A stretch of 64,000 bases of DNA from positions 2,944,001 through 3,008,000 of the forward strand of contig OZ242374.1 in the NCBI GenBank assembly GCA_965209055.1, given 5' to 3'. Positions 429-63,119 of the stretch are shown piece by piece. The stretch is from Acidobacteriota bacterium. GTDB taxonomy: Bacteria; Acidobacteriota; UBA6911; RPQK01; JAJDTT01. Position 1 is the stretch's first letter. Each line of letters begins with the position of its first letter. A program made the position numbers and the translations under genes. The notes under the pieces were generated by a model. That model made no database searches, was not told where the DNA came from, and saw only the letters and a program-made list of their open reading frames with translations.

Positions 429-1787
429 ATGAAGTTGTCGGGGCGGAACATCCTGGTGGTCGGACTGGCCCGGACCGGTCTGGCCGCGGCCAACTTCCTG
501 GCTGCGAAGGGGGCCCGCGTCAGCGTCACGGATCTTCGCACGAGGAATGATCTGAGTGACCAGATCGCAAGGCTCCAGGGGAGGGTTCGGTTGGTGCTGG
601 GACGTCACCGGGAAGCGGATTTCACCGGAGCCGACATGATCGTATTGAGCCCCGGGGTGCCGTCGGGGATCCCTCCGCTGGTGCGGGCCCGGGAGCGGGG
701 AATACCGGTCTGGAGCGAGATCGAGCTGGCTTGCCGTTTCCTGAAGGGCACGCTCATCGGCGTCACGGGAACCAACGGCAAGACCACCACGACCACACTG
801 ATCGGCGAGATGCTGGCCGCGGGCCGGCGGCCCCACGTCGTGGCGGGCAACATCGGAGTCCCCCTGCTGGAGAAGCTGGAGGACGCCAATGACGAAACGG
901 TCTGGGTCGTGGAGCTCTCATCCTTTCAACTGGAGACGACCCGGACGCTGCACTGCCGGGTGGCCGTCGTCCTCAACGTAACTCCGGACCATCTGGATCG
1001 TCACGCGAGCTTCGAAGACTACTGGCAGGCGAAGCGCCGCATTCTGCTCAACCAGGAAGCGTCGGATTTCGCCGTGTTCAACCGGGACGAACCCAATTCC
1101 AGGCGCATGGCCGACGGTGCCGAGGCGCGTCCCCTCTTCTTCAGCCGGTTGGAACGGTGCGCGGGCGCTTTTTCCCGGGACGGAAAGATCTGGATTCAGG
1201 TGGACGGCGAGCCGCACCAGGTGATGGACAGGAGCCAGGTCCGGCTCAAAGGGGAACACAATCTGGAAAACGTTCTGGCCGGCGCGGCCGCCGGCTTCAT
1301 GGTGGGCGTCGGACCCGAAGCGATCGCCCGTGCCTGCCGCCGCTTCGCCGGCGTGGAGCACCGCCTGGAATGGATCCGGGACCTGGAGGGGGTCTCCTTC
1401 TACAACGATTCCAAAGCCACCAACGTGGAATCGGCCGCCAAAGCCATGGAAGCCCTGGAGCAGCCCCTGGTCGCCATCATGGGGGGGACCAACAAAGGGT
1501 CCGACTTCCGGGTGCTGAGGCCGCTGGTCAAGAGGAAGGTCCGGCACCTGGTCCTTTTGGGAGAGGCCAAGGACAGTCTCGTGGAGGGGCTGCGCGGAAC
1601 CGCCCCGGTGAGCGAGGTCGGAGGGTTTGAGGAAGCGGTTCGCCGGGCGTTCGTCGTGGCGGTGCCCGGAGACGCGGTGCTGCTGGCCCCGGCCTGCGCC
1701 AGTTTCGACATGTTCCGCAACTATGAGGAACGGGGCAGAGCCTTCAAGGATCTGGTTTCACGGTTGACCGGAGGTGAGTGGCAGTGA
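429..1787 (+). CDS. murD: UDP-N-acetylmuramoyl-L-alanine--D-glutamate ligase
   Basis: GLARTG, VLSPGVP, GVTGTNGKTTTT, YNDSKATN, LAPACASFDMFRNYEERG motifs. Confidence 0.97.
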   Translation: MKLSGRNILVVGLARTGLAAANFLAAKGARVSVTDLRTRNDLSDQIARLQGRVRLVLGRHREADFTGADMIVLSPGVPSGIPPLVRARERGIPVWSEIELACRFLKGTLIGVTGTNGKTTTTTLIGEMLAAGRRPHVVAGNIGVPLLEKLEDANDETVWVVELSSFQLETTRTLHCRVAVVLNVTPDHLDRHASFEDYWQAKRRILLNQEASDFAVFNRDEPNSRRMADGAEARPLFFSRLERCAGAFSRDGKIWIQVDGEPHQVMDRSQVRLKGEHNLENVLAGAAAGFMVGVGPEAIARACRRFAGVEHRLEWIRDLEGVSFYNDSKATNVESAAKAMEALEQPLVAIMGGTNKGSDFRVLRPLVKRKVRHLVLLGEAKDSLVEGLRGTAPVSEVGGFEEAVRRAFVVAVPGDAVLLAPACASFDMFRNYEERGRAFKDLVSRLTGGEWQ

Positions 1788-2914
1788 CCCGGAGAACGAC
1801 GTACGACCCTGTGATTCTGTTGGTCCTCCTGGTTCTGGTGGGCTTCGGCCTGGTCATGGCCTTCAGCGCCTCCGGAATGGTGTCGCTGGACCGGTACGGC
1901 GTTTCCACCCGTATTTTCCAAAGGCAGCTGGTGAGCGTCGGTATCGGCCTGGTGGTCTTCTGGATCGCGGCGCATTGGGACTATCGGCGCTATGCGACTC
2001 CCGCATTCATCTATCCGGCGCTGGCCGCCACCGTGATTCTCCTGGTTCTTCCCTTGGTGCTGCCCACTGGTCAGGATGTCCGGCGCTGGATTCCGGTCGG
2101 GCCTACGAGGTTCCAACCCTCGGAACTGGCCAAGCTCGGGGTCGTGGTTTTCGCGGCCTACTACCTCACCCGATACCGCTCGAGCCTCCAGTCGTTGGCC
2201 GTGTTGGCGCCGTTGCTGGGGATTGTGGGGCTGGTCCTGGCTCTGATCGTGGTCGAGCCCGATCTGGGTACCGCCTGCGCCATCGCGCTCACGGTGGGAA
2301 CGGTGCTCTTCCTGGCCGGCGTTCGCCTGATCTACCTGATCGGCCTCGCCGGCTTGAGTATTCCTGTCGTCCTGGCCCTCATTTTTAGCGCCTCCTACCG
2401 CAAGGACCGGATTCTGGCCTTCCTGAATCCGGACGTCGACCCCTCCGGCATCGGCTACCAGATTCGCCAGAGCCTCATCGCCGTGGGCTCCGGCGGATGG
2501 ACCGGACTGGGTCTGACCCAGAGCAAGCAGAAGCTCCATTTTCTGCCCGAGTCCCACACCGATTTCGTCTTCGCCGTCGTGGGGGAGGAGCTTGGATTGC
2601 TGGGTTCGCTCGTCATGGTGGCGCTCTTTGTTCTGCTCTTCTGGCGAGGAGTGCGGATCGCTTTCCGGGCCGACACCGATTTCGGCTCTCTGCTGGCCAT
2701 GGGGATCGTGTGCATGGTGGTCCTGCAAGGCATGTTCAACATGTGCGTCGTGGTCAGCCTGCTGCCCACCAAGGGAATTCCGCTCCCGTTCGTCTCGGTC
2801 GGCGGATCCTCCATGTTGGCCATGATGGCCGGCATGGGCATCCTGCTGAACATTTCCCGCCGCTGCCGGACCGACCGGGAGGAGGCCGTTCCCCGGGACC
2901 GGGGGGTCCAGTGA
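1778..2914 (+). CDS. ftsW: SEDS family peptidoglycan polymerase FtsW
   Basis: multi-TM protein with FQPSELAK, EPDLGT, LPESHTDF, PFVSVGGSS; dcw position. Confidence 0.96.
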   Translation: MAVTRRTTYDPVILLVLLVLVGFGLVMAFSASGMVSLDRYGVSTRIFQRQLVSVGIGLVVFWIAAHWDYRRYATPAFIYPALAATVILLVLPLVLPTGQDVRRWIPVGPTRFQPSELAKLGVVVFAAYYLTRYRSSLQSLAVLAPLLGIVGLVLALIVVEPDLGTACAIALTVGTVLFLAGVRLIYLIGLAGLSIPVVLALIFSASYRKDRILAFLNPDVDPSGIGYQIRQSLIAVGSGGWTGLGLTQSKQKLHFLPESHTDFVFAVVGEELGLLGSLVMVALFVLLFWRGVRIAFRADTDFGSLLAMGIVCMVVLQGMFNMCVVVSLLPTKGIPLPFVSVGGSSMLAMMAGMGILLNISRRCRTDREEAVPRDRGVQ

Positions 2915-21729: not shown

Positions 21730-23007
21730 ATGCCTTCGAAACGGAGATTGATCCCCATCGCCAAATCTACAAGCAGAGGAGCCGTAGCAGTGGTCCTGCT
21801 CCAGATATTGGTTGCCGCAGACGTCTCGGCCGAGGAGAAACAGGGCACTGAACCGGCGGAGTGGACGACTGCCCAGAAGCTGGCCGGAAAGTACGGTTGG
21901 CCCTATGTGGCGGGGCACAAGGGGCTCTCCCGCCAGGAGATCGTCTTTCCCCGGGTCCGGGGCCTGCAGGTGATCAAGGCGGACCTCCACATCCACACCA
22001 TCTACTCCGATGGCCAGGTCCTGCCCGAAACTCGTGTCTGGGAAGCCTGGCGGGACGGTCTGGATCTGATGGCCATCACCGATCATCCTGAGTACATGAG
22101 GCTGGCCCTGCCCCAGGACCGGGAACGAGCCTACGGCCGGGCCCTTCCGCTGGCCCGGGCCCTGGGTCTGATGCTGATTCGGGGTGCCGAGCTGACGACC
22201 CTTTCGGGACCGACATACAAGGATGAGGACTCGGATCACGTCGTCGCTTTCGTTCAGGACGAGAGTCCCTTTTTCGACGACTTCGACACGGCGGTCCGGT
22301 CGGCCCGCGACCAGGGAGCCGTCATCATCTGGGCCCATCCCGGCCCTCGATGGGTCCGGGACGCCACCCGCCTTCTGAAGTTGGGGTGGCTGGACGGGAT
22401 CGAATTGAGGAACGGCGGCCGAAAAGGGGGGAAGGGGATTGGATACCACCGGGGAGAACCGTACTTCTCCGAGGTGATGGACTGGTGCCTCGAACACGAC
22501 CTGGCCGTCATCGCCTCGTCGGATGCTCACTGGCCCATCGACCAGATGGTCGACCGGAGCCGGGGAGAACGCCGGGAAATGACCCTGGTCCTGGCTGAGC
22601 GCCGGGGCGAGACGTCGATCCGGGAAGCCATCAAGGCCCGGCGCACCCTGGCTTATTTCGGCGAGATGATCTGGGGGCGGGAAGAGTGGCTCCGCGCTCT
22701 GGCCGAGAGCTCACTCCGTTTTAGTGTCACTCCAAGCGTCCAAGAGAATCGGAAACGCCACTTCCTGTCCGTTGCAAACTCCTCCTCCTTCCCCTTTCGC
22801 ATGAAGGTCTTCAGGGCGGGAGATGAAATGGCCGCGGGTCTCCGGGAGGTGCGAATTGCGGAGCGGGGACGGACCGTGGCTCCCGTCAGCGTGAAAGAGG
22901 GGGAGACAGGCGTTCGGCTGGTCATCACGTTCACCAACCTTCTTTCCGGCGCGGACCGGCCGCTTGTCATGGAACGGCGACTGCAGGTTCCGGGAGGACC
23001 ACCATGA
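21730..23007 (+). CDS. PHP-domain metal-dependent phosphoesterase-like protein, probably exported
   Basis: DLHIHTIYSDG, AITDH, WAHP, SSDAH motifs. Confidence 0.85.
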   Translation: MPSKRRLIPIAKSTSRGAVAVVLLQILVAADVSAEEKQGTEPAEWTTAQKLAGKYGWPYVAGHKGLSRQEIVFPRVRGLQVIKADLHIHTIYSDGQVLPETRVWEAWRDGLDLMAITDHPEYMRLALPQDRERAYGRALPLARALGLMLIRGAELTTLSGPTYKDEDSDHVVAFVQDESPFFDDFDTAVRSARDQGAVIIWAHPGPRWVRDATRLLKLGWLDGIELRNGGRKGGKGIGYHRGEPYFSEVMDWCLEHDLAVIASSDAHWPIDQMVDRSRGERREMTLVLAERRGETSIREAIKARRTLAYFGEMIWGREEWLRALAESSLRFSVTPSVQENRKRHFLSVANSSSFPFRMKVFRAGDEMAAGLREVRIAERGRTVAPVSVKEGETGVRLVITFTNLLSGADRPLVMERRLQVPGGPP

Positions 23008-25871
23008 GTTCCGCGTACCCCGTCCCGGCCATCGCCGCTCTTGTGGGACTCCTGTTTGCATGTGCCCCTCCGGCAGAAACACTCCAGGCTCCTGTGCAGG
23101 AAGGCCGGGAGGTCTGGAGGGAGTCCAGCTTCGCCGATTTCGCCGACGGGACCCTGACCGACGGTGGGGCCAACACATACGTCGGGGCGGATGGGAGCGT
23201 CCGGCTCATCAACGAACTGGACCTGAACCAGGACGGGCTCATCGACCTGGTCCTTCCGGGAAGCCACGACAACAACTTCGACATGGAAGCCTGGATCTAC
23301 TGGGGACGGGACGATTTGGACGCCGGCAGCCGGACCGCGCTCCCGGGGGAGGGCGGCCAGGACGTGGCCATTGCGGACCTGAACCGGGACGGCCATCCGG
23401 ACCTGGTGGTGGCCAAGGGCTACAACGGCACCCGGACCGAGAACCGGTCGGCCCTCTATTGGGGAAGCGAATCCGGGTTCGACGCCGAGCGAAGGACCGA
23501 TCTGCCGACGGTTTCGGCCCAGGCCGTGGCCACTGGCGATCTGAACGGCGACGGTTACCCGGAAGTGGTCTTCGCCAGCAACGGCCTCTCCTACCAGTTC
23601 ACCCGGGAGGGGAACGACTTCAGCGTGGTGCGGCCGGTTTCAGACATCTACTGGGGCTCGGGGGACGGCTATTCTCCCCGCCGAACCACGCAGTTGCCCA
23701 CCCGTTTCGCCCGCGACGTGGCCATTGCCGATCTGAACCGGGACCGGGCGCCCGATCTGGTCTTCGCGGTTCAGGACTACAAGGGCGAACCGGGTGGAGT
23801 GCTGGTCTACTGGGGATCCGAATCCGGCTACTCGGCGGATGCCTCCCTTTGGCTGGAAGGGTTGGGAAGCGTGGCTTTGATCGCCGCCGACTTGAACGGC
23901 GACGGCTGGCCCGACCTGGCGGTGGCCAACGAGACGGCGCCCGGCTTCGACGCGGATGCCGGAGGGATCGCCGTCACCCCGATTCCCAGTTACGTCTACT
24001 GGGGGGCTTCCGGGGGGTTCGATCCGGAGCGGCGGACCGCGTTGCCCGGCTGGCGGGCCCGGGGCATCGAAGCCGCCGATCTCGACCGGGATGGGCATCC
24101 CGATCTGATCCTCTCCAACCAGGCGGGCCATGCGTCCTTCATCTACTGGGGGTCGGCAGACGGATTTCGGCCGGATCTCAGAACGGCCCTGCCCACGCTG
24201 GCCGCCGGCGCCAGCACGGCCGCGGATCTCAACGGGGACGGCTATCCGGACCTGGTCTTCGCCAACGAGAAGAGCGACGAGAGCTACGACGTCTCCTCCA
24301 CCGTCTACTGGAACGGACCAAGCGGATTCGATCCCTCCCGCCGGCTGGAATTGCCGACTCGAGGCGCGTTGTCGGTGGCAAGCGGCGACCTGGACGGCGA
24401 CGGCAAGGGCGATCTGGCGTTTGCGCAGAGCAAGGACGGCTATGCGTCCGACAAAGCCCCCAATGCCTACATCTACTGGGGCCGGACCGACGGGGACTAT
24501 TCTCCTGAGGACCGCTGGACCTTGCCCTACTCCGGCCTGAGCGCGGCCAACATCGCCGACCTCGACCGGGACGGCTGGACCGACCTGGTGCTGGCGGGGC
24601 AGATCGACATCTTGTGGGGGACGCCCGAAGGACTCTCCCGGACCGGGACCACCCATCTCCCCACGCGGAGGGGTTTCAGCGTGGTGGTGGCGGACTTCAA
24701 CCGGGACGGATACCTGGACCTGAGTCTCAGCGAGTGGACCCACGGCCGGGACGAGATGAGCCTCTTCTGGGGCGGTCCCGCAGGCTATCGGATGGACAAC
24801 CGCTTCATCCTCAAGTTTCCCGACGTGCGGCTCCACAAGGCGGCGGACCTGGACCGGAACGGCTATCTGGACCTGCTGTTTACCGGGACCAGCGACCGCG
24901 TGGCCATCTTCTGGAACGGACCCGGCGGATTCGACAACCGCAACGTCCAGCATCTTCCGTCCAAGATGGCCGTCGGAGCCGAGATCGGGGACCTCGATGG
25001 CGACGGATACCTGGACATCGTGATCTGCAATCTGTACGACCTGGAAAAGCTCCGGACCGACGAAGGCGAGCGCGCCATCGACGCGGAGCCCCAAGCGGCC
25101 CCGTTCGCTGCCGGCACCGCCGTTTACTGGGGAGGGGAAACGGGATTCTCGGAGAATCGCATGCTGCTCCTGGACACGGTCGGGAGCGAGGATGCCTCCA
25201 TCGCCGATTTGAACCGGGACGGCCGCCTGGACCTGGTGGTTTCCAGCTACCACGCCGGCGCCAATCGGCATCACCCGTCCTACGTCTTCTGGGGCGCCGA
25301 GTCGGGACTCGACCCGAAACCGGTCCTTTTGCCCACCGATTCCGCCTCCGGCGTGATGGTGGCGGATTACAACCGGGACGGGCACGACGACATCTTCTTC
25401 GTCTGCCACACCAAGGGAGGAAATCATCGCACCGACTCCTTCCTTTATTGGGGCTCGGAGGCGGGATTTTCCACCGGGAGGCGGCTCCTGGTTCCGACCC
25501 GCGGCGCGCACTGGGCGATTCATCACGACGTGGGAAACGTCTACGACCGCGCTCCCCGCTACGATTACATTTCCGCGCCGTTCCGTCTGCCTGAAAACGG
25601 CCAGGTCGAGAGCCTGAGCTGGAAGGCGCGGACTCCGCATGAGACCTCCGTTGATTTCCAGGTCCGGGGTTCGGAGACGCGGGAGGGTCTTGGTGCTTCC
25701 GAGTGGTCCGGTCCCGACGGACCGGGAAGCCGATACACTCGGCCGGGCGCCCGTTTGGATGGACTCGGCGGCAACACCCGCTGGATTCAATACAAGGCGT
25801 CACTGGTTTCGCCCGGAGGCGTCAACTCGCCGGTCTTGGAGCAGGTTGAGATAAGCTACCAGGGCGAATAG
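23004..25871 (+). CDS. FG-GAP/VCBS-repeat lipoprotein
   Basis: lipobox LFAC; many ADLNxDGxPDLV and IYWG repeats. Confidence 0.9.
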   Translation: MSSAYPVPAIAALVGLLFACAPPAETLQAPVQEGREVWRESSFADFADGTLTDGGANTYVGADGSVRLINELDLNQDGLIDLVLPGSHDNNFDMEAWIYWGRDDLDAGSRTALPGEGGQDVAIADLNRDGHPDLVVAKGYNGTRTENRSALYWGSESGFDAERRTDLPTVSAQAVATGDLNGDGYPEVVFASNGLSYQFTREGNDFSVVRPVSDIYWGSGDGYSPRRTTQLPTRFARDVAIADLNRDRAPDLVFAVQDYKGEPGGVLVYWGSESGYSADASLWLEGLGSVALIAADLNGDGWPDLAVANETAPGFDADAGGIAVTPIPSYVYWGASGGFDPERRTALPGWRARGIEAADLDRDGHPDLILSNQAGHASFIYWGSADGFRPDLRTALPTLAAGASTAADLNGDGYPDLVFANEKSDESYDVSSTVYWNGPSGFDPSRRLELPTRGALSVASGDLDGDGKGDLAFAQSKDGYASDKAPNAYIYWGRTDGDYSPEDRWTLPYSGLSAANIADLDRDGWTDLVLAGQIDILWGTPEGLSRTGTTHLPTRRGFSVVVADFNRDGYLDLSLSEWTHGRDEMSLFWGGPAGYRMDNRFILKFPDVRLHKAADLDRNGYLDLLFTGTSDRVAIFWNGPGGFDNRNVQHLPSKMAVGAEIGDLDGDGYLDIVICNLYDLEKLRTDEGERAIDAEPQAAPFAAGTAVYWGGETGFSENRMLLLDTVGSEDASIADLNRDGRLDLVVSSYHAGANRHHPSYVFWGAESGLDPKPVLLPTDSASGVMVADYNRDGHDDIFFVCHTKGGNHRTDSFLYWGSEAGFSTGRRLLVPTRGAHWAIHHDVGNVYDRAPRYDYISAPFRLPENGQVESLSWKARTPHETSVDFQVRGSETREGLGASEWSGPDGPGSRYTRPGARLDGLGGNTRWIQYKASLVSPGGVNSPVLEQVEISYQGE

Positions 25872-25909: not shown

Positions 25910-26842
25910 ATGGACAGGGAACTGCTGACCTGGTTCAACGGCCGGCTGGTTCCGGATTCCGAGGTCCGGATCCATCACACCGACTCCGGCCTCAGCTTCG
26001 GCCACAATGTGACCGACTCGGCGCGGACCTTCGGGTACCGCCCCTTCAAGCTGAAGGAGCACATCGGCAGGTTCTACCGCTCCATGTCGGTGGCCCGGAT
26101 CAATCCCGGCATGACTCCCGAGCGGATGGAAGAGATCGCACTGGAGGTGCTGGAGGCGAATCGTCCCGTCCTGGACCCGGACGGTGACGTGTGGGTCACC
26201 CAGACCGCCACCGGAGGCCGGATGCGCAGCACCATCGGACGTTTCGAGTTCGACCGTCCCGGGCTGCTCATCGCCACACTGCCGCTGGGCTTCGCCGATT
26301 ACGCTCACCTCTACGAGAAAGGGGCCCACGCCGTGACCCCCTCGACCCGGCATATCCCGCCCCAGTCGCTGGACGCCAAGCTCAAGCACCGGAACCGGAT
26401 CTTCTTCACCCTGGCTGAATTCGAGGTCAAGGAGGTGGACCCGGAGGGTTTCTCTCTCCTTCTGGACATCGACGGCAACGTGACGGAGAACAAGGGGGCC
26501 AACTTCTTCATCTACCGTGACGGACGCCTGAGGACGCCCACGACCCGGAACTGCCTGGAGGGAGTCAGCCGGGCCACGGTGCTGGAGCTGGCCCGGGAAG
26601 AAGGGATTCCCGCGGTGGAGGAGGACTTCCAGCCCTACCATGTGACCACCGCGGAGGAGGCCTTCTTCTGCAGCACCTCCTATTGCATGCTCCCGGTGAC
26701 CCGCTACAACGGCAATGTGCTGGGCGAGGGCCGGCCGGGACCCGTCTATCGCCGGCTGATCGGCGCCTGGAGTAGAAGAGTAGGAATGGATATTCCGGAA
26801 CAGGCGCTCCGAGGAGCGGCGACTTGGAGCGGCGGTTTCTAA
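25910..26842 (+). CDS. aminotransferase class IV (branched-chain/D-amino acid type)
   Basis: WFNG, GLSFG, KLK, ENKGANFF, CLEGVSR, EEAF. Confidence 0.9.
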   Translation: MDRELLTWFNGRLVPDSEVRIHHTDSGLSFGHNVTDSARTFGYRPFKLKEHIGRFYRSMSVARINPGMTPERMEEIALEVLEANRPVLDPDGDVWVTQTATGGRMRSTIGRFEFDRPGLLIATLPLGFADYAHLYEKGAHAVTPSTRHIPPQSLDAKLKHRNRIFFTLAEFEVKEVDPEGFSLLLDIDGNVTENKGANFFIYRDGRLRTPTTRNCLEGVSRATVLELAREEGIPAVEEDFQPYHVTTAEEAFFCSTSYCMLPVTRYNGNVLGEGRPGPVYRRLIGAWSRRVGMDIPEQALRGAATWSGGF

Positions 26843-26847
26843 CCGCC
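26826..26847 (+). repeat. REP-like palindrome containing the aminotransferase stop codon
   Basis: GGAGCGGCGGTTTCTAACCGCC. Confidence 0.75.
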
Positions 26848-27022
26848 GGCCAGGGGGGGGTAGGGGGGACGGCAACACACCCATTGAATCCAGCGATATC
26901 CCAAGAGATCCCGGAATATCTTTTAAGTGGTTGGTTTTCTTTAGTTTATACCTGTTCTCACCCCGTTTCTTCCTCCCCTGACGTCCCTTGATATCCATCT
27001 CTATCCCGTTTATTATGGTGTA

Positions 27023-28258
27023 ATGGGTGATGTAATCAGTGCTCCCCTTTTGCCCCGGAAGACCAAGCCGAAGGGCCGCCACCCCCACAAGGCGCTCTCC
27101 GCCGCTTTCGTGCGCTCCGCCCCACCGGGCAAACACTGCGACGGCAACGGACTCTACCTCTTCGTCAAGCCTAACGGAGCACGAAGCTGGATCCAACGCC
27201 TCGTCATCCGCGGCCGCCGCCGCGACTTCGGACTCGGCGGTGTGGCACTGGTGTCCCTGGCCGAGGCCCGCGAGAAGGCGCGGGCCAACCGCAAGCTGGC
27301 CCGCGAAGGTGGGGATCCCCTGACCGAGAGACGCCGCACGCACAACATGCCCACCTTCGCCGAAGCCGCCGAGCGGGTGGTGGAGCAGAAGCGGTCCGGC
27401 TGGCGCAATCAAAGGCAGGCCCACGACTGGATGGCGAGCTTTCGACGCTACGCCTTTCCTCACATCGGCCGGATGCCGGTCTCGGAGGTGACCAGCGGCG
27501 ACGTCCTGGAGATCCTCGTGCCCATCTGGCACGTGAAGTCGCGCACGGCCCGGACCGTGCGACAGCGCATCCGCACGGTCCTGGAGTGGGCCGTGGCGAT
27601 GGAATACCGGACCGACAACCCCTGCGACCGGGTCGTGTCGGTGCTCGGAGCACAGGACGACGTGGTGCGGCACATGCCGGCCTTGCCGCATCGCGAGGTG
27701 GGGGCGGCCCTCCGGAAGGTGCGGGCCTCCAACGCGATGCCCGTGTCCCTGCTGGCCTTCGAGTTCCTGGTGCTCACGGCGGCGAGGTGGGGCGAGGTGC
27801 GGTGGGCCGAGTGGCTGGAGATCGATCCGGCGCAAGGGATGTGGACGGTTCCCGGAATCCGCATGAAGACCAAACGGGCGCACCGGGTGCCTTTGTGCCG
27901 CCGGGCGAATGAGATCCTGGAGAAGGCACGCACGCTGGATCATGGAGCCACCCGGTTGATCTTCGCCCGAAGGGGCGGAAAGCCGCTCGGCTCCGGCCGG
28001 TTGCGCAAGCTGCTGCGCCGGAACGGGATCGCCGCCGTGCCGCACGGGTTCCGGTCGAGTTTCCGGGACTGGGCGGCCGAGGAGACGGATCATCCACGCG
28101 AGGTGGTCGAGGCGGCGCTGGCGCATGTGGTGAAGAACAAGGTCGAGGCGGCGTACCGGCGCACGGACCTGTTCGAGCGTCGGCGTCGGCTCATGGAGGA
28201 CTGGGCGAGCTATCTGGCTGGCGAGAGTCCGGAACGGGTGGCCGGCCGGCTCCGTTGA
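27023..28258 (+). CDS. P4-type tyrosine integrase with arm-binding domain (start may be TTG 27050)
   Basis: DGNGLYL..SW..GLG..VSLAEARE arm domain; catalytic R (TAARWGE), K, HGFR, LAH, Y all present. Confidence 0.93.
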   Translation: MGDVISAPLLPRKTKPKGRHPHKALSAAFVRSAPPGKHCDGNGLYLFVKPNGARSWIQRLVIRGRRRDFGLGGVALVSLAEAREKARANRKLAREGGDPLTERRRTHNMPTFAEAAERVVEQKRSGWRNQRQAHDWMASFRRYAFPHIGRMPVSEVTSGDVLEILVPIWHVKSRTARTVRQRIRTVLEWAVAMEYRTDNPCDRVVSVLGAQDDVVRHMPALPHREVGAALRKVRASNAMPVSLLAFEFLVLTAARWGEVRWAEWLEIDPAQGMWTVPGIRMKTKRAHRVPLCRRANEILEKARTLDHGATRLIFARRGGKPLGSGRLRKLLRRNGIAAVPHGFRSSFRDWAAEETDHPREVVEAALAHVVKNKVEAAYRRTDLFERRRRLMEDWASYLAGESPERVAGRLR

Positions 28259-28481
28259 TCCGCCGTGGTGGTTCTCCCGGCAGGCTTCGTGATCTGGGGT
28301 TCGAGCCGGATTCCGGGAGGTCGATCTTGACCGCTGAAAAGTGGGGTTCCGTGCCGCTCGGGGAGTGCACCTGAGACAATGGGGGGCATGTGCACCATGA
28401 GGGCTCTTCGATGTGCACGGCACCGTTCCTCTAACTTGCTGTCCCCATTCGGGTTACGGCTCGCCTCGCGGCTCGGCGGCA

Positions 28482-28623
28482 CCGCTCGGGGAAAGCGGAG
28501 GTGGACGGGAGCGACCCCCCTTTTTTGCCTCCCGGATCGGCAAAGCGGGGCAGGCTGATGCGCACTGACCGTGCCATCGCCTCGGGGGGTCGCTCCCGTC
28601 CCAATGATCCCTGCCGGGAAGGC
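28482..28623 (+). ncRNA. structured non-coding motif copy A (RNA or ssDNA structure, function unknown)
   Basis: 18-bp perfect inverted repeat 28503-28520 / 28584-28601 enclosing two hairpins; homologous flanks in three other copies. Confidence 0.45.
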
Positions 28624-29107
28624 CTCTGGATCGCCTGAGCGCGTGGCGGTGCGGCACGGAACGGCGCGGTGGGCAGGCCGCCGCGTGCCAGTGCTCGTAC
28701 AAGCGTCTGTGGACGGCCCCGATGGCTGGACGGAGTGATCTGGCGGATCGAACAGGCAATCTTCTTCCAGAAATGCGGAGTGTGCTGAAAGGGACGCGGG
28801 CCGATTCGACGGCTATGGCAGCGTCAGGGCCTCGCTGAGACCGGCCATCGAGTGGCGACCAGGGGCGGAAGATCGCGCCGCCGGCGTGGAGATCGACGAC
28901 GACGTTCGCGACGCTCTCGTGGCGGGCGACACGCTTGCCGGGGAGCTCATTTTGACGGGTACAGAGCGCCCCACCGTGTCGATCCGGGAGTGTAAGGGAG
29001 ACAACGGGGGCAACTTACATCATGGGAGTCTGCCAACTTACACACGCGATTTCTCCGATCTCTTTGTCGCTCATGCTGTTACGGCCACATTCCCGGCTCC
29101 GCCGTGC

Positions 29108-29248
29108 CCGCACGGGGAAAGCGGAGGTGGACGGGAGCGACCCCCCCCTTTTTCCTGCCCGGTGCGGGCGCGGGGGCGTGGCGCAACTTACATCTGCGCC
29201 ACACCCCCTGGGGGGGTCGCTCCCTTCCAAAATATCCCTGCGGGAAGC
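29108..29248 (+). ncRNA. structured non-coding motif copy B
   Basis: GGGAGCGACCCCCCC...GGGGGGGTCGCTCCC stem with two inner hairpins. Confidence 0.45.
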
Positions 29249-29789
29249 CCCGGAGAAGAATCCGGAAGACCTGTCAGGGCTCTGCCAGGCGTCCGTTCTC
29301 GACACGCGGTGCAGGATCCAGGCATGACCACAGGCGACACGTGCCAATGGGGTCCGCAGGTGCAGGTGGATTTTCGGCGTCCTCTTGGACGAGGAGGTGG
29401 ACCGAACCCCGGAAGGCCTGAACTCGGAACGGCAGGCGGAGGTTCGCGTCGGGGTCCGCTCCAGGCCCAGCCCCCGATCCAGGGCCTGGCCGACGAGGCG
29501 GCCGGTGCGGGTGGTGGTGGTCCGGCCGTCGAGAGCCGCCTCCACGCCGTGGTGGCACCGGAGCAAGCGGCGGTCGAAGCGCAGGGCGCGGTTTCTCCGG
29601 CAACCCGGAACGGATGACGGACCGGGGGAACCGATCCCCCCAGACCCCTCAGTGGCGCCAGAACCCCTGGCGGCTCACCTTGCCGCCAGTGAACCTGGCG
29701 CTTCTGTTCGTCGCGCGTCCCATGAGAATGGGACCCTCACGCGGTCTCCTCGGCCTTCCAGCCGGGAGTGAGACGTTCGCCCGTTTCCG

Positions 29790-29876
29790 GCAGTCCTGGC
29801 CAATCGGACCCGGTCAGCTCCGAATGTCCGCCCCCAATTCCCGGAGCGCGCAGGCGCTTGAAACCTGGGAGTCGAG
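29790..29876 (+). pseudogene. N-terminal remnant of the 362-aa tyrosine recombinase
   Basis: WPIGPGQLRMSAPNSRSAQALET versus intact WPHGSGRLRMYAPNYRSAQALQT. Confidence 0.8.
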
Positions 29877-30167
29877 GCGAGAAACTCGTCCATGGAGTCC
29901 ACGGACCTCCAATAGGGTCGAATGGAATCCCGTTTAGAAGGTGGGATGTAATGATGTAACCTGCTCGGGAGAATAGATCATAACTACTTTATTATCAGAT
30001 ACTTAAGAGATCGTTTCCGTAGAGGGGACGGCAGTCCCCCCTTTACGCTTATCCACCGCTGACTCGCACGGAAAAAGGAAGAATGGGGGACTAACAGTCC
30101 CGCGCTCTGTCCTGCTGAGCTTGGGGCGCTTGCTTTTATTTTCAAGGGGTTACGCCACTGCTCTCCT

Positions 30168-31256
30168 CTAGTCATTCCCCCTATTTCCTGCCTGTTGCCT
30201 GTTTGTTGCCGGGCGCATTTGTGAGTCTTCGGTAGCCTGTGCCTCCCGAATGCTGGCCAGCGCGTGGGAACTGACGTACCCGGCGTAGCGCATCGTCGTG
30301 CTGATTGCCGAGTGACCCATCAGCTTCTGCACCGTCCTCACGTCCACCCCCTGCATCAGCCAATGGCTGCACCGGAATCGTCTCAGGTCGTGAAATCCGA
30401 CCTTCAACCCCACCCGCTCGGCGGCCCGGCGCAACGGCTTGTCCGGATTCACCCATCTCGTCCCGGTCCGGGTGTTGACGAAGACGTAAGGGGTGTTCAG
30501 GTAGCGAACCAGCCCGGCCAGGTATCCAGCAGCGTACTTCGACAGCGGGATCTCCCTCGTCTCGTCGTTCTTGGTGAATTCCACCCATAGCAGCCTCCGG
30601 GATAGGTCCACCCGTTTCCAGGTGAGCGACAACGCTTCGCCTTTTCGAATCCCCGTCTCGCCGATCACCGCAACCATGGCTTGCAGGTATGGGTTGTCCA
30701 TTGCCCCGACCAGGTCGCGGAACTGTTGAACCGTCAAGGGCCGGAAGACCTTCTTGGGTTCTTTCAGTTTGGGGAATCTCACCAGCGGGTGCGTGTCCAC
30801 TTCCCCGCACTCCAGCGCGTAGGAAAACAGCTTGCTGATGGCGGCGATGTCGCGGTTCACCGTGGCCGGCTGCACTTGCTTCTTTCTCTTGGCGACGTAG
30901 CGGTACAGGTCCTTGCGTTGGAACTCCTTCAGGGGAATGTTCCCCAGCATGGCGTTGAGGCTCTTGAAGGAGAGCGCATAGCGACGCCGGGAGCGCATGC
31001 GAGGTTTGCAGTACTCCTCGAAGAAACGCTCGTAGAAGCTCCGGACCGTCCAGACGGTGCGGTTCCCGCCGGCGAGTTCCTCCTTGAGCTGCTTCCATGT
31101 GCCGTCCAGGATGCTGGACTCGATTCGTGTTTGAAGCGCCTGTGCGCTCCGGTAGTTGGGGGCGTACATTCTGAGCCGACCGGATCCGTGCGGCCAGTAC
31201 TTGCTGACGACATAGCGTCGTCTCCCCCGGCGATCCTTCACCTTGTAGATGCCCAT
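30168..31256 (-). CDS. tyrosine recombinase/integrase, 362 aa
   Basis: RBS AGGAG before MGIYKV; PATVNR, TGIRKGE, TKN, FHDLRR, MGHS, RY. Confidence 0.95.
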   Translation of the reverse strand: MGIYKVKDRRGRRRYVVSKYWPHGSGRLRMYAPNYRSAQALQTRIESSILDGTWKQLKEELAGGNRTVWTVRSFYERFFEEYCKPRMRSRRRYALSFKSLNAMLGNIPLKEFQRKDLYRYVAKRKKQVQPATVNRDIAAISKLFSYALECGEVDTHPLVRFPKLKEPKKVFRPLTVQQFRDLVGAMDNPYLQAMVAVIGETGIRKGEALSLTWKRVDLSRRLLWVEFTKNDETREIPLSKYAAGYLAGLVRYLNTPYVFVNTRTGTRWVNPDKPLRRAAERVGLKVGFHDLRRFRCSHWLMQGVDVRTVQKLMGHSAISTTMRYAGYVSSHALASIREAQATEDSQMRPATNRQQAGNRGND

Positions 31257-31916
31257 AGCATCTCCTCCTTTCTGGATCCGGGTTCTTCGCCGTGGGGCGA
31301 ATCCTACCACGGCGCCAGAGAATCGACGTCGGCGTTCAGGTCCTTCAGAGCGAGGACGCGGCGGCGGCTCCATCCAGATCACAACGGCGGGCCGATTTCG
31401 TCCTGGTCCGCGATTCCGGCAAGCCGGAACGGATGACGGACCGGGGGGAACTCTCCCCCCAGACCCCCCAGTGGCGCCCTCAAAGAGTCAGGCTCACCAT
31501 GCCGGACTCTTTTTCACGCGCTCCTGTTTGTCGCGTCCCATATGAATGGGTCCCTCGCGCGGTCTCGGACGGCTTCCAGCCGGGAGCAGGATTTCTTTCG
31601 TGGAAGGTGCTGATTGTGGGGTCAGCAAAACGACGCACCCTGTGGGAAATCTCTGATTTTCCACACGGTGGGGAGGCTCGAACCCAGGGCCTCGGCGCTC
31701 ACTGGAAGGGATTTTCAGTTGGTAGGTGTCTCTTCTTCTTGTCCGGTCAAAATCTTTCTCGTAGCTCTGACAGCCACAGCGCGGACAGCGGTAAGCGCGG
31801 CGGCCGCGGAGCTTCTCCACCGCCTGCTTCCTGAGGGCCTCCAGCCGTTCCTGGTTGTTGTGGATATCAGGGATGCTCCTGCATCCCATCTTGCCCGTCA
31901 GGGTGTCATCTCTTGC

Positions 31917-32058
31917 CTTCCCGCTAGGGATAATTTCGACGGGAGCGACCCCCCCAGGGGGTGCTGCGCAAATGTGAATTGCGCAACACCCCCGCGCCCG
32001 CACTGGGCGGCAAAAAGGGGGGGTCGCTCCCGTCCACCTCCATTTTCCCCGTGCGGCC
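31917..32058 (-). ncRNA. structured non-coding motif copy C
   Basis: near-identical reverse complement of copy D. Confidence 0.45.
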
Positions 32059-32790
32059 ACCCGGTGGCCGGAAATGGGGCCGCAACTGACTGAAAGGAAA
32101 AAAGATCGGGGAGAGTGCATTTGTGAGTCACCGGGACCGCTTTTTGTGAATCCACCCCCTTTGTCCCATTCACATCCCGGAGCGGGCGCGAGACCCTCTT
32201 GACGCACTGCCGAAACGAGCCTCCATTGGCCCTTGCGACTGCCAAGTGCGTTCACCGTCAATCACGACCTGGAAGGAGCGACTTTCCGCCGCTGGTTGCA
32301 ACTCGACCGCCCGCTTCAGTGCGGCCGTCACCCTGCCTTAGGAGTTGAGGCGGCCCTGGTCGGTCGAGTGCCCCGGAATCGACACGGACGACGACGGTCC
32401 GGTCGGCCTCGACGGCAATCGGCGGCTTGAGCGCGAAGTCGCATCGGGTCTTCCCCACCGTGCCGTAGTACAGTTGCCGGGGATGCCGATTCTTGGGAAT
32501 GCCCCGCCGTTCGAAGCCGGACACCTTCGGCCTCAGGCAGAGTCCTCCGGTGGGGCCAAACGGTCGGCAAAGCCAATCGGATAAGGTCTTTGAGCCAGGC
32601 AACGGAAGGGGAAAAAGGGCGCGTCGGCTTTCAGGAACCGATCCGGCTGCCTGTTTGTTGCCTGTTCAGTATGTCAAACATGGGGAGTCAATCACTTTTC
32701 CGATTCGGCGAAGAACCCGGTAAATGATTGAAAACGTTAACGTTCGGTAGTCTTTGACTGTGGGACAGTTGGGACTAACAGTCCCCCCTC

Positions 32791-61325: not shown

Positions 61326-62030
61326 AAGAGATGACACCCTGACGGGCAAGATGGGATGCAGGAGCATCCCTGATATCCACAACAATAAGGAACGGCTGGA
61401 GGCCCTCAGGAAGCAGGCGGTGGAGAAGCTCCGCGGCCGCCGCGCTTACCGCTGTCCGCGCTGTGGCTGTCAGAGCTACGAGAAAGATTTTGACCGGACA
61501 AGAAGAAGAGACACCTACCAACTGAAAAGCCCTTCCAGTGAGCGCCGAGGCCCTGTGTTCGAGCCTCCCCACCGTGTGGAAAATCAGAGATTTCCCACAG
61601 GGTGCGTCGTTTTGCTGACCCCACAATCAGCGCCGCCCACGAAAGAAAGCCGGCTCCCGGCTGGAAGCCGTCCGAGACCGCGCGAGGGACCCGTTCTTAT
61701 GGGACGCGACAAACAGGAGCGCGTGAAAAAGAGTCCGGCATGGTGAGCCTGACTCTTTGAGGGCGCAACTGGGGGGTCTGGGGGGATAGTTCCCCCCGGT
61801 CCGTCATCCGTTCCGGCTTGCCGGCCTCGCGGACCAGGACGAAATCGGCCCGCCGTTGGAGGACCTCGACCACGGTCGCGGTCCAGGCCTCTCCGGCCCG
61901 CGTTGTGATCTGGATGGAGCCGCCGCCGCGTCCTCGCTCTGAAGGACCTGAACGCCGACGTCGATTCTCTGGCGCCGTGGTAGGATTCGCCCCATGGCGA
62001 AGAACCCGGATCCGGAAAGGAGGAGATGCT

Positions 62031-63119
62031 ATGGGCATCTACAAGGTGAAGGATCGCCGGGGGAGAAGACGCTATGTCGTCAGCAAGTACTGGCCGCACG
62101 GATCCGGTCGGCTTCGAATGTACGCCCCCAACTACCGGAGCGCACAGGCGCTTCAAACACGAATCGAGTCCAGCATCCTGGACGGCACATGGAAGCAGCT
62201 CAAGGAGGAACTCGCCGGCGGGAACCGCACCGTCTGGACGGTCCGGAGCTTCTACGAGCGTTTCTTCGAGGAGTACTGCAAACCTCGCATGCGCTCCCGG
62301 CGTCGCTATGCGCTCTCGTTCAAGAGCCTCAACGCCATGCTGGGAAACATTCCCCTGAAGGAGTTCCGACGCAAGGACCTGTACCGCTATGTCGCCAAAA
62401 GGAAGAAGCAAGTGCAGCCGGCCACGGTGAACCGGGACATTGCCGCCATCAGCAAGCTGTTTTCCTACGCGCTTGAGTGCGGAGAAGTGGACACGCACCC
62501 GCTGGTGAGATTCCCCAAACTCAAAGAACCCAAGAAGGTCTTCCGGCCCTTGACGGTTCAACAGTTCCGCGACCTGGTCGAGGCGATGGACAACCCCTGC
62601 CTGCAAGCCATGGTTGCGGTGATCGGCGAGACGGGGATACGGAAAGGCGAAGCGTTGTCGCTCACCTGGAAACGGGTGGACCTATCCCGGAGTCTGCTAT
62701 GGGTGGAGTTCACCAAGAACGACGAGCCGAGGGAGATTCCGCTCTCGAAGTATGCTGCTGGATACCTGACCGGGCTGGTTCGCTACCTGAACACGCCATA
62801 CGTTTTCGTCAACAGCCGGACTGGCACGAGATGGGTGAATCCGGACAAGCCGTTGCGCCGGGCCGCCGAGCGGGTGGGGTTGAAGGTCGGATTTCACGAC
62901 CTGAGACGATTCCGGTGCAGCCATTGGCTGATGCAGGGGGTGGACGTGAGAACGGTGCAGAAGCTGATGGGTCACTCGGCGATCAGCACGACCATGCGCT
63001 ACGCCGGGTACGTCAGTTCCCATGCGCTTGCCAGCATACGGGAGGCACAGGCTACCGAAGACTCACAAATGCGCCCGGCAACAAACAGGCAACAGGCAGG
63101 AAATAGGGGGAATGACTAG
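62031..63119 (+). CDS. tyrosine recombinase/integrase, 362 aa
   Basis: nearly identical to 30168-31256; full R-K-HxxR-H-Y set. Confidence 0.95.
   Translation: MGIYKVKDRRGRRRYVVSKYWPHGSGRLRMYAPNYRSAQALQTRIESSILDGTWKQLKEELAGGNRTVWTVRSFYERFFEEYCKPRMRSRRRYALSFKSLNAMLGNIPLKEFRRKDLYRYVAKRKKQVQPATVNRDIAAISKLFSYALECGEVDTHPLVRFPKLKEPKKVFRPLTVQQFRDLVEAMDNPCLQAMVAVIGETGIRKGEALSLTWKRVDLSRSLLWVEFTKNDEPREIPLSKYAAGYLTGLVRYLNTPYVFVNSRTGTRWVNPDKPLRRAAERVGLKVGFHDLRRFRCSHWLMQGVDVRTVQKLMGHSAISTTMRYAGYVSSHALASIREAQATEDSQMRPATNRQQAGNRGND

Follow-up and report, generated by a model that had tools for sequence, protein, structure and literature searches.

P4-type tyrosine integrases are textbook single-site enzymes tied to tRNA genes, and an intact gene of this type at a locus with no tRNA raises the question of which chromosomal sequence its element recognises. 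The locus lies in a 64-kb stretch of DNA (the window; G000:C1:2944001-3008000) from the genome of a sponge-associated Acidobacteriota bacterium (G000; one contig, 6.08 Mb, 62.8% GC), and window DNA was also present in sponge and coral-reef metagenome runs from several studies. Window positions 26860-30033 (3.16 kb) very probably constitute a site-specific integrative element whose P4-type integrase uses the central hairpin of a multicopy repetitive extragenic palindrome (REP)-like repeat as its chromosomal attachment site (attB).

Anatomy of the element and its junctions

The 10-bp core GGGGACGGCA is present at both junctions of the element, all features of which are described on the plus strand. 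It forms part of a direct repeat that an earlier note on this DNA had pointed out and that was confirmed here, with GTAGGGGGGACGGCA at 26860-26874 and GTAGAGGGGACGGCA at 30019-30033 identical at 14 of 15 positions. The left attachment site, attL (26860..26874), contains the core at 26865-26874, which supplies the target hairpin with its left arm and loop, while attR (30019..30042) comprises the right copy of the direct repeat, the core at 30024-30033 and the host right arm at 30034-30042. Joining the left repeat to the bases after 30033 restores a perfect 9-bp stem with the loop GGCA, as the same note had claimed, and this intact hairpin occurs naturally elsewhere in the genome. The occupied attR itself re-forms the hairpin with one stem mismatch (DNA fold -7.3 kcal/mol, z -1.97). 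On the outer side of attL, the left part of the host repeat (26812..26859) consists of small hairpins (CGGCGG-TTTCTAA-CCGCCG at 26830-26848) and a G-run and overlaps the stop codon (26840-26842) of a class IV aminotransferase gene (25910-26842). Its right part (30034..30050) consists of GTCCCCCCT followed by TTACGCTT, as defined by the consensus of 10 intact sites.

The open reading frame (ORF) at 27023..28258 encodes an intact tyrosine integrase of 411 amino acids with the Pfam domains Arm-DNA-bind_3 (PF13356, residues 25-105; 7.5e-18), Phage_int_M (PF22022; 1.6e-25) and Phage_integrase (PF00589; 1.6e-12), in agreement with its earlier description as P4-type. Its N-terminal domain matches PDB entry 3jtz (CP4-like integrase N-domain; E 6e-8), and residues 24-398 match NCBIfam PRK09692 (E 6e-40; 137 bits, below the 434-bit cut-off). 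Candidate catalytic R, K, HxxR, W and Y residues were assigned by eye in the translation rather than through a structural alignment (LTAARW, MKTKRAH, HGFR, FRDW and EAAYRR), and the closest phage integrases are only 34-40% identical. By its predicted architecture, the integrase belongs to the P4/CP4-57 kind.

Both ends of the element resemble the arms of a phage-type attachment site. The left (P) arm (26875..27022), delimited by an alignment of eight left ends from four genomes, contains conserved blocks, is AT-richer than its surroundings and carries the motif ATCCCGTTTA at 27003-27012, with GATGTAAT following at 27029-27036, just inside the start of the integrase ORF. The right (P') arm (29792..30018), which is kept in all copies of the element whatever their cargo, carries ATCCCGTTTA at 29927-29936, GATGTAAT at 29945-29952 and GATGTAAC at 29953-29960. 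The earlier report of arm-like repeats near both ends was therefore upheld, and their placement is unlike that of shuffled sequence: ATCCCGTTTA occurs exactly twice in the window, both times within the element (expected 0.04; two reached in 0/100 shuffles), and GATGTAAY occurs four times, three of them at the element ends (27029, 29945 and 29953; expected 0.81; four reached in 0/100 shuffles). The ends are also AT-richer than the integrase gene (GC 0.54-0.59 versus 0.66-0.70). Between the gene and the right arm lie a partial non-coding hairpin module (28453..28625; an 18-bp perfect stem with arms 28503-28520 and 28584-28601) and a full module of about 275 bp (28976..29250; stem arms 29128-29147 and 29210-29229).

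Copies in the genome and the repeat that they occupy

The integrase genes returned by a tblastn search of the source genome comprised five at 91-100% amino acid identity, a single gene at 81%, ten genes at 63-65% and several more of about 30%. The five close genes, all open and full length, reside in copies of different size (A, 2495 bp; B, 6736 bp; C, 16386 bp; D, 3159 bp; and E, the window copy, 3159 bp) with junctions built alike: attL is the left part of the REP followed by GGGGACGGCA and a common left end, and attR is a common right end followed by GGGGACGGCA and GTCCCCCCT.TAC. Because this structure recurs at all five copies, it goes beyond what chance would yield. The host-side bases beside the core vary among copies and the element-side bases are common to them. 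Both arms are conserved in the five copies and in the genomes G001, G006 and G008, whose close homologues (with the loop ACCA in G001) have the same boundaries, which was the outcome of a flank alignment that the earlier note had proposed. Over 3182 bp, copies D and E show 98.8% identity, a homology that begins at the core on one side and stops 12 bp beyond the core on the other. No relationship is seen between the flanks of B, those of D and those of E, or between any of these and the flanks of A and C. The proposed spread of the element within a genome is thus reflected in five copies that have the 10-bp core as their common point of insertion, with unrelated flanks at four.

Cargo differs among the copies. 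Copy C (L115, G000:C1:801650-818350) encodes a C-5 cytosine methylase (Dcm-type), HATPase_c_3, Z1, DUF4420 (PD-(D/E)XK) and an AIPR protein split into two ORFs, a predicted defence-type gene cluster for which the element would be a vehicle. Copy B carries split trypsin-like ORFs, and D and E, each holding one partial and one full hairpin module of about 275 bp, have no Pfam match outside the integrase. Copy C also holds the 3' part of a second, truncated integrase.

Within a composite REP-like repeat, the element targets the central hairpin, GGGGGGAC-GGCA-GTCCCCCC. Intact sites consist of small hairpins, numbering one to three (GGAGCGGCGG, a loop of the type TTTCCAA, and CCGCCG), a G-run and then TTAGGGGGGAC-GGCA-GTCCCCCCT.TACGCTT, and for two of these sites the predicted fold has two hairpins (-26.5 and -25.2 kcal/mol, with z of -3.5 and -4.2). 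A relaxed search allowing any 4-nt loop and up to two stem mismatches found 46 positions in the source genome, about 28 of which lie in REP context by eye, comprising 23 free hairpins and five attR sites. With the loop GGCA in 13 of the free hairpins and in the five occupied ones (again counted by eye), the palindrome is multicopy, as had been supposed, and the loop variants GTCA, GACA, GATA, GGTA and GTTA also exist, occupied by no element in this genome. The small hairpin is present in 243 strict copies (180 + 63) versus 0 in the reversed genome. The central hairpin, at up to one mismatch, likewise recurs within each of five further genomes of the genus (16, 12, 13, 11 and 5 hits; 0 for a reversed control pattern), and in G002, G003 and G005 it is multicopy where the integrase query gave only fragments, interrupted frames or matches of at most 51% identity. 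At 4/4 independent insertion loci (A and C being counted as one; see below), the position of the REP is extragenic, starting at or just after the apparent stop codon of the upstream frame.

Most matches to the 10-mer GGGGACGGCA outside REPs arise because the NNGDGTF-coding motif of FG-GAP/VCBS paralogues contains it by chance, genome-wide; a 955-amino-acid protein with ten FG-GAP/VCBS-type repeat matches is encoded upstream of the aminotransferase gene (window 23004-25871, plus strand). Elsewhere in the genome, a 252-amino-acid ORF (positions 1336-2094, minus strand, of G000:C1:1141470-1144703; L001) is flanked on both sides by small hairpins and gives a weak match to Y1_Tnp (IS200-like; 29.7 bits versus a cut-off of 23). 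It is a candidate REP-associated tyrosine transposase (RAYT), and the arrangement fits a REP/RAYT system, short of proof; a second Y1-transposase candidate has no small hairpins within its locus.

In 5/5 copies, attL and attR disagree at both positions that adjoin the 10-bp block, which points to strand exchange inside GGGGACGGCA, that is, within the 3' part of the left stem arm and the loop. In the mechanism proposed here, the N-terminal arm-binding domain of the integrase would recognise the arm-type repeats in both arms of the element's own attachment site (attP), the G-rich and C-rich arms of the hairpin stem, inverted relative to each other, would be bound as core-type sites, and the reaction would be an ordinary double-stranded recombination between attP and attB. 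Integration would leave half a hairpin at attL and rebuild a near-perfect hairpin at attR from a left arm borne by the element, comparable to the way in which islands at tRNA genes restore the end of the tRNA. Copy number may rise by repeated entry or by re-integration after replication. With many equivalent sites available directly behind genes, copies that enter or re-integrate could settle in several positions and leave genes unbroken, which would account for four independent insertions.

Empty sites and rival explanations

Uninterrupted target sites were sought by comparing the 1.5-kb outer flanks of copies D, B and C with eight other genomes of the same genus, and seven loci were read per site. 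At the D locus, an uninterrupted hairpin without the element is present in 3/7, namely G008 (the closest relative; flank 96% identical, loop GGAA), G001 and G004; the locus is occupied in none, and G003, G005, G006 and G007 have no such repeat there. The B locus is likewise uninterrupted in three of the seven (G005, G004 and G003) and occupied in G008, with no such repeat in G001, G002 and G007. The A/C locus holds an uninterrupted hairpin in G001 (perfect), G003 and G006 (3/7) and is occupied in G008, while G004 and G007 have no such repeat and G005 has no anchor. At all three loci, the hairpins of the empty sites sit in the same REP context.

Several results weigh against an interpretation of the element as mobile and hairpin-targeting. 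All genomes used are metagenome-assembled, and repeats may have been misjoined; none of the conclusions depends on the unpublished genome G016. The flanks of A and C are 96-97.5% identical over 1.5 kb on both sides, so these copies represent one insertion that was later duplicated with its surroundings as part of a larger segment, and four independent insertions remain. At the window's own locus, none of six readable relatives (from seven same-genus loci with the aminotransferase gene, one of them without an anchor) has the GGCA hairpin, and all six carry other REP-type hairpins after that gene. The prediction of an empty hairpin in relatives was consequently borne out at three of four insertion loci (D, B and A/C), and the window's own locus was uninformative. 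An attP circle or tandem junction was absent from the genome and the examined loci, and a scan for the junction pattern gave 23 metagenome and 4 viral-collection matches, none of them like the element by blastn; these 27 are about the number estimated for chance, to which all were attributed. Among contigs of four public runs compared with the locus, a single one, from run X15, confirms the attL junction but may derive from the source sample. The eight non-integrase ORFs of the 3.16-kb form gave no Pfam match at E values up to 0.01, and neither protein cargo nor an excisionase was recognised among them. Two further contigs, neither of them readable further, were not used as evidence: one from X1 joins 26857 to 30024 with six other letters between them, both sides being REP so that any REP copy is possible, and one from X7 follows the left flank and diverges at 26858.

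Alternatively, the REP repeats on either side might have allowed homologous recombination or segmental duplication to spread the copies independently of the integrase, the hairpin context being incidental. These repeats provide about 30-50 bp of homology per side, and such a process would suit A and C, which lie in a duplicated segment, but it fits that pair only: no similarity is seen among the flanks of B, D and E once the repeat ends, the homology between D and E begins exactly at the core with different REP bases just to its left (GGGGGGGT versus GGGGGGGGTAGG), all five attR sites carry the element-type base before the core, unlike their paired attL sites, and homologues in other genomes break at the same precise point. 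Spread by this route is therefore highly improbable. It is also very unlikely that the hairpin halves belong to the element itself, with the 'free' hairpins as excision scars or miniature derivatives. Site-specific excision does restore attB, making a scar look like a site that was never occupied, and the element's attP contains a left-arm look-alike, GTAGAGGGGAC. The hairpin, however, always stands within a larger repeat with one to three small hairpins, from a family of at least 243 copies, and hairpins of this small type border one Y1-transposase ORF on both sides; moreover, the central hairpin is multicopy in G002, G003 and G005, in which no complete close integrase homologue was found, and its loop variants GTCA, GACA, GATA, GGTA and GTTA are occupied by no element in G000.

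A less easily dismissed alternative accepts this anatomy and regards the element as a fixed relic that is immobile today. The circle junction, the excisionase and polymorphism at the window's own locus are all things that were sought and not found, and the A/C and B insertions are common to G008 and hence old. Against this stand five integrase genes that are all open and full length, the difference of only 1.2% between D and E together with the empty D site in the closest relative (flank 96% identical), and an X1 contig that joins the left end of the element (4 differences in 238 bases) to sequence unlike the window flank. On balance, present immobility appears unlikely.

tRNA genes, related integrases and known systems

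If the central REP hairpin is the target of this integrase, as argued above, the family departs from what is common, if not universal, among P4-type enzymes, namely the use of the 3' part of a tRNA or transfer-messenger RNA (tmRNA) gene as attB. The earlier observation that no tRNA is present holds for the whole window according to ARAGORN, whose closest call anywhere in the genome lies 47.7 kb away from the start of the integrase. The same genome has four P4-type integrases, about 30% identical to this one, at distances of 160-169 bp from tRNA-Ala, tRNA-Ile, tmRNA and tRNA-Phe genes, while the 16 copies of the present family lie 2.5-146 kb from the nearest ARAGORN call and 0/16 adjoin a genuine tRNA. 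The call at 2.5 kb was rejected as a false one inside the repeat module. Among the best 80 public homologue loci (of at least 581 related stretches), which were examined for junctions, taxonomy and tRNA proximity, a tRNA lies within 1.5 kb at one, downstream of the integrase. A search of the element arms for a tRNA vestige gave matches of 10-12 nt only (E 0.065-0.64). The earlier proposal of retargeting thus holds for the multicopy palindrome as a target, and the move away from tRNA genes would follow only from the habit of the family, the arms having no tRNA vestige. Window positions 30033-30044 (the hairpin right arm and 3' flank) equal 12/12 bases of the T-arm/acceptor 3' end of tRNA-Leu(TAG) (G000 2260840); at E 0.065 this G/C-run-rich match is at chance level and is not evidence, although it offers a starting point for tracing a possible origin of the target as a tRNA mimic.

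The metagenome-assembled genomes (MAGs) that hold the best 80 relatives carry the labels Acidobacteriota (among them Ca. Versatilivorator and Vicinamibacterales), Gemmatimonadota and, for one bin, Gammaproteobacteria; a single genome often has many copies. In a quick maximum-likelihood tree of 86 rows, the integrases at REP hairpins cluster together (SH-aLRT 90), and beside them stand a G004 homologue and the 81% copy. Sequences with internal stops (L035, L037, L041, L054-L056, L094, L095 and one G000 copy) or irregular matches (L058, L061, L068, L103 and L110) were omitted from the tree, in whose labels copy D was wrongly tagged 'other' by a regular expression. The right arm of the 81% sister is the same up to CCGTAGA, and its core, CCCTGCGG, lies in another palindrome (GAGCGCTG...CAGCGCTC). 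Across the tree, the junction motif tracks clade: it changes 19 times, the mean after shuffling being 47.6, and 0/200 shuffles gave a value as low, a result inflated by near-copies. Integrases that are 81-100% identical and have different cores would thus form a natural series for studying changes in core specificity.

More distant subclades have recurrent junction motifs of their own. The ten integrases at 63-65% identity fall into two subgroups (G000 positions 68120, 580087, 2485194, 3838719 and 4968589; and 1599043, 1610484, 3143647, 3383889 and 3920035), each with its own left-junction sequence (one with CCTTCCCGCAAGGAA) and none beside a tRNA. Homologues at 70-77% identity, found in Gemmatimonadota MAGs (L038-L057 and L098) and Ca. 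Versatilivorator MAGs (L059-L092), share junction motifs that recur (GTCACCGTCACTGTAG; GCTGCCGCCGCCGCAAC; AGTCAGCTTCCTGTGCAGCAAC) next to outer flanks that differ, and they occur in many copies per genome. Recurrent motifs with differing flanks suggest that multicopy targets are used in other phyla too, and sponge symbionts may have exchanged such genes horizontally, to judge from identities of 73-77% between phyla.

The combination of a tyrosine recombinase with a palindromic or hairpin-forming site is known from integron IntI/attC and from XerCD acting on folded phage sites. Unlike in those systems, nothing here points to a single-stranded folded substrate, and the arm-binding domain and long arms are as in lambda and P4. 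The element shares with P4/CP4-57-type islands its domain set, an integrase gene beside attL, a short direct repeat at the ends, arm-type repeats in both arms and a target rebuilt at one junction. It differs from them in that the target is a multicopy extragenic palindrome rather than a tRNA or tmRNA 3' end, several copies share one chromosome, and the smallest forms are without protein cargo or a recognisable excisionase. PMC4482086 describes a P4-like family that has, as a clade, given up tRNA genes for dusA; that target is a single-copy protein-coding gene, whereas the site described here is repeated many times per genome.

Specific insertion into repetitive extragenic palindromes is a likeness to certain insertion sequences (IS), since passages of PMC3184786 and PMC1525189 report that IS1397 (IS3 family) and IS621, ISPa11, ISPpu9/10 and IS1594 (IS110 family) insert specifically into REPs, in many copies and with genes unbroken; IS110 elements use a bridge RNA (PMC11208160). 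These REP-targeting IS have DDE or DEDD transposases, in contrast to the tyrosine recombinase, att arms and variable cargo (copies of up to 16 kb) found here. A survey of the full-text literature, with subscription-only papers outside its scope, found no tyrosine integrase targeting REP-type repeats, only IS3/IS110 transposases. The element would therefore extend REP targeting to a third recombinase class, and its coupling of P4-type machinery to a repeated host palindrome would make insertion site-specific yet multi-site; an integrase recognising a short, many-copy hairpin could serve for multi-copy insertion. The element may also explain the many near-identical 'phage integrase' genes without prophages that are mentioned for Acidobacteria in a passage of PMC3469429.

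A second tyrosine recombinase family, with about 26 copies genome-wide, is represented in the window at 30085-31382 (minus strand) and 61905-63119 (plus strand). Its members are 404 amino acids long, with Phage_integrase, Int_N and SAM_1 domains, and are Xer-like by NCBIfam; the first window copy lies 45 bp to the right of attR. About 85 bp after the stop codon are conserved and match positions 4-34 or 4-41 of the tRNA-Arg genes of G000 (87-93%; E 5e-7 to 8e-6), and similarity between copies ends inside REP-type hairpins of several kinds. From these sequence features, the family looks like integrases that have moved from the tRNA anticodon arm to REP hairpins.

A broader reading is offered tentatively and is rather doubtful. 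It would hold that a P4-like clade in sponge and coral symbionts (Acidobacteriota, Gemmatimonadota and others) has become IS-like, with each subclade using its own host repeat as attB, that the exit from tRNA genes passed through stem-loop mimics, and that the 275-bp module is a transfer or replication signal. Under this reading, the attB of a subclade may be the REP hairpin, as here, or GTCACCGTCACTGTAG or GCTGCCGCCGCCGCAAC elsewhere. Leads for the tRNA-mimic route may be found in the tRNA-Arg 5' half in the arm of the second family, which abuts REP hairpin arms, and in the chance-level 12/12 match to tRNA-Leu(TAG).

The hairpin module may itself be a transfer, replication or regulatory signal, and could let cargo-less elements hitch rides. 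Within the window, it occurs at 28976-29250, 28453-28625 and approximately 31917-32128 as nested hairpins with an outer stem of 18-20 bp, and genome-wide it is located downstream of int1-type and upstream of int2-type genes. Of its 63 blastn matches in the source genome, 60 span 29110-29240, and a double-sided change is seen at 8/32 predicted pairs. No Rfam family reaches its gathering score on the module, and Rfam over 26000-32500 returned two sub-threshold chance matches only. Two copies of the module are miscalled by ARAGORN as tRNA-Val.

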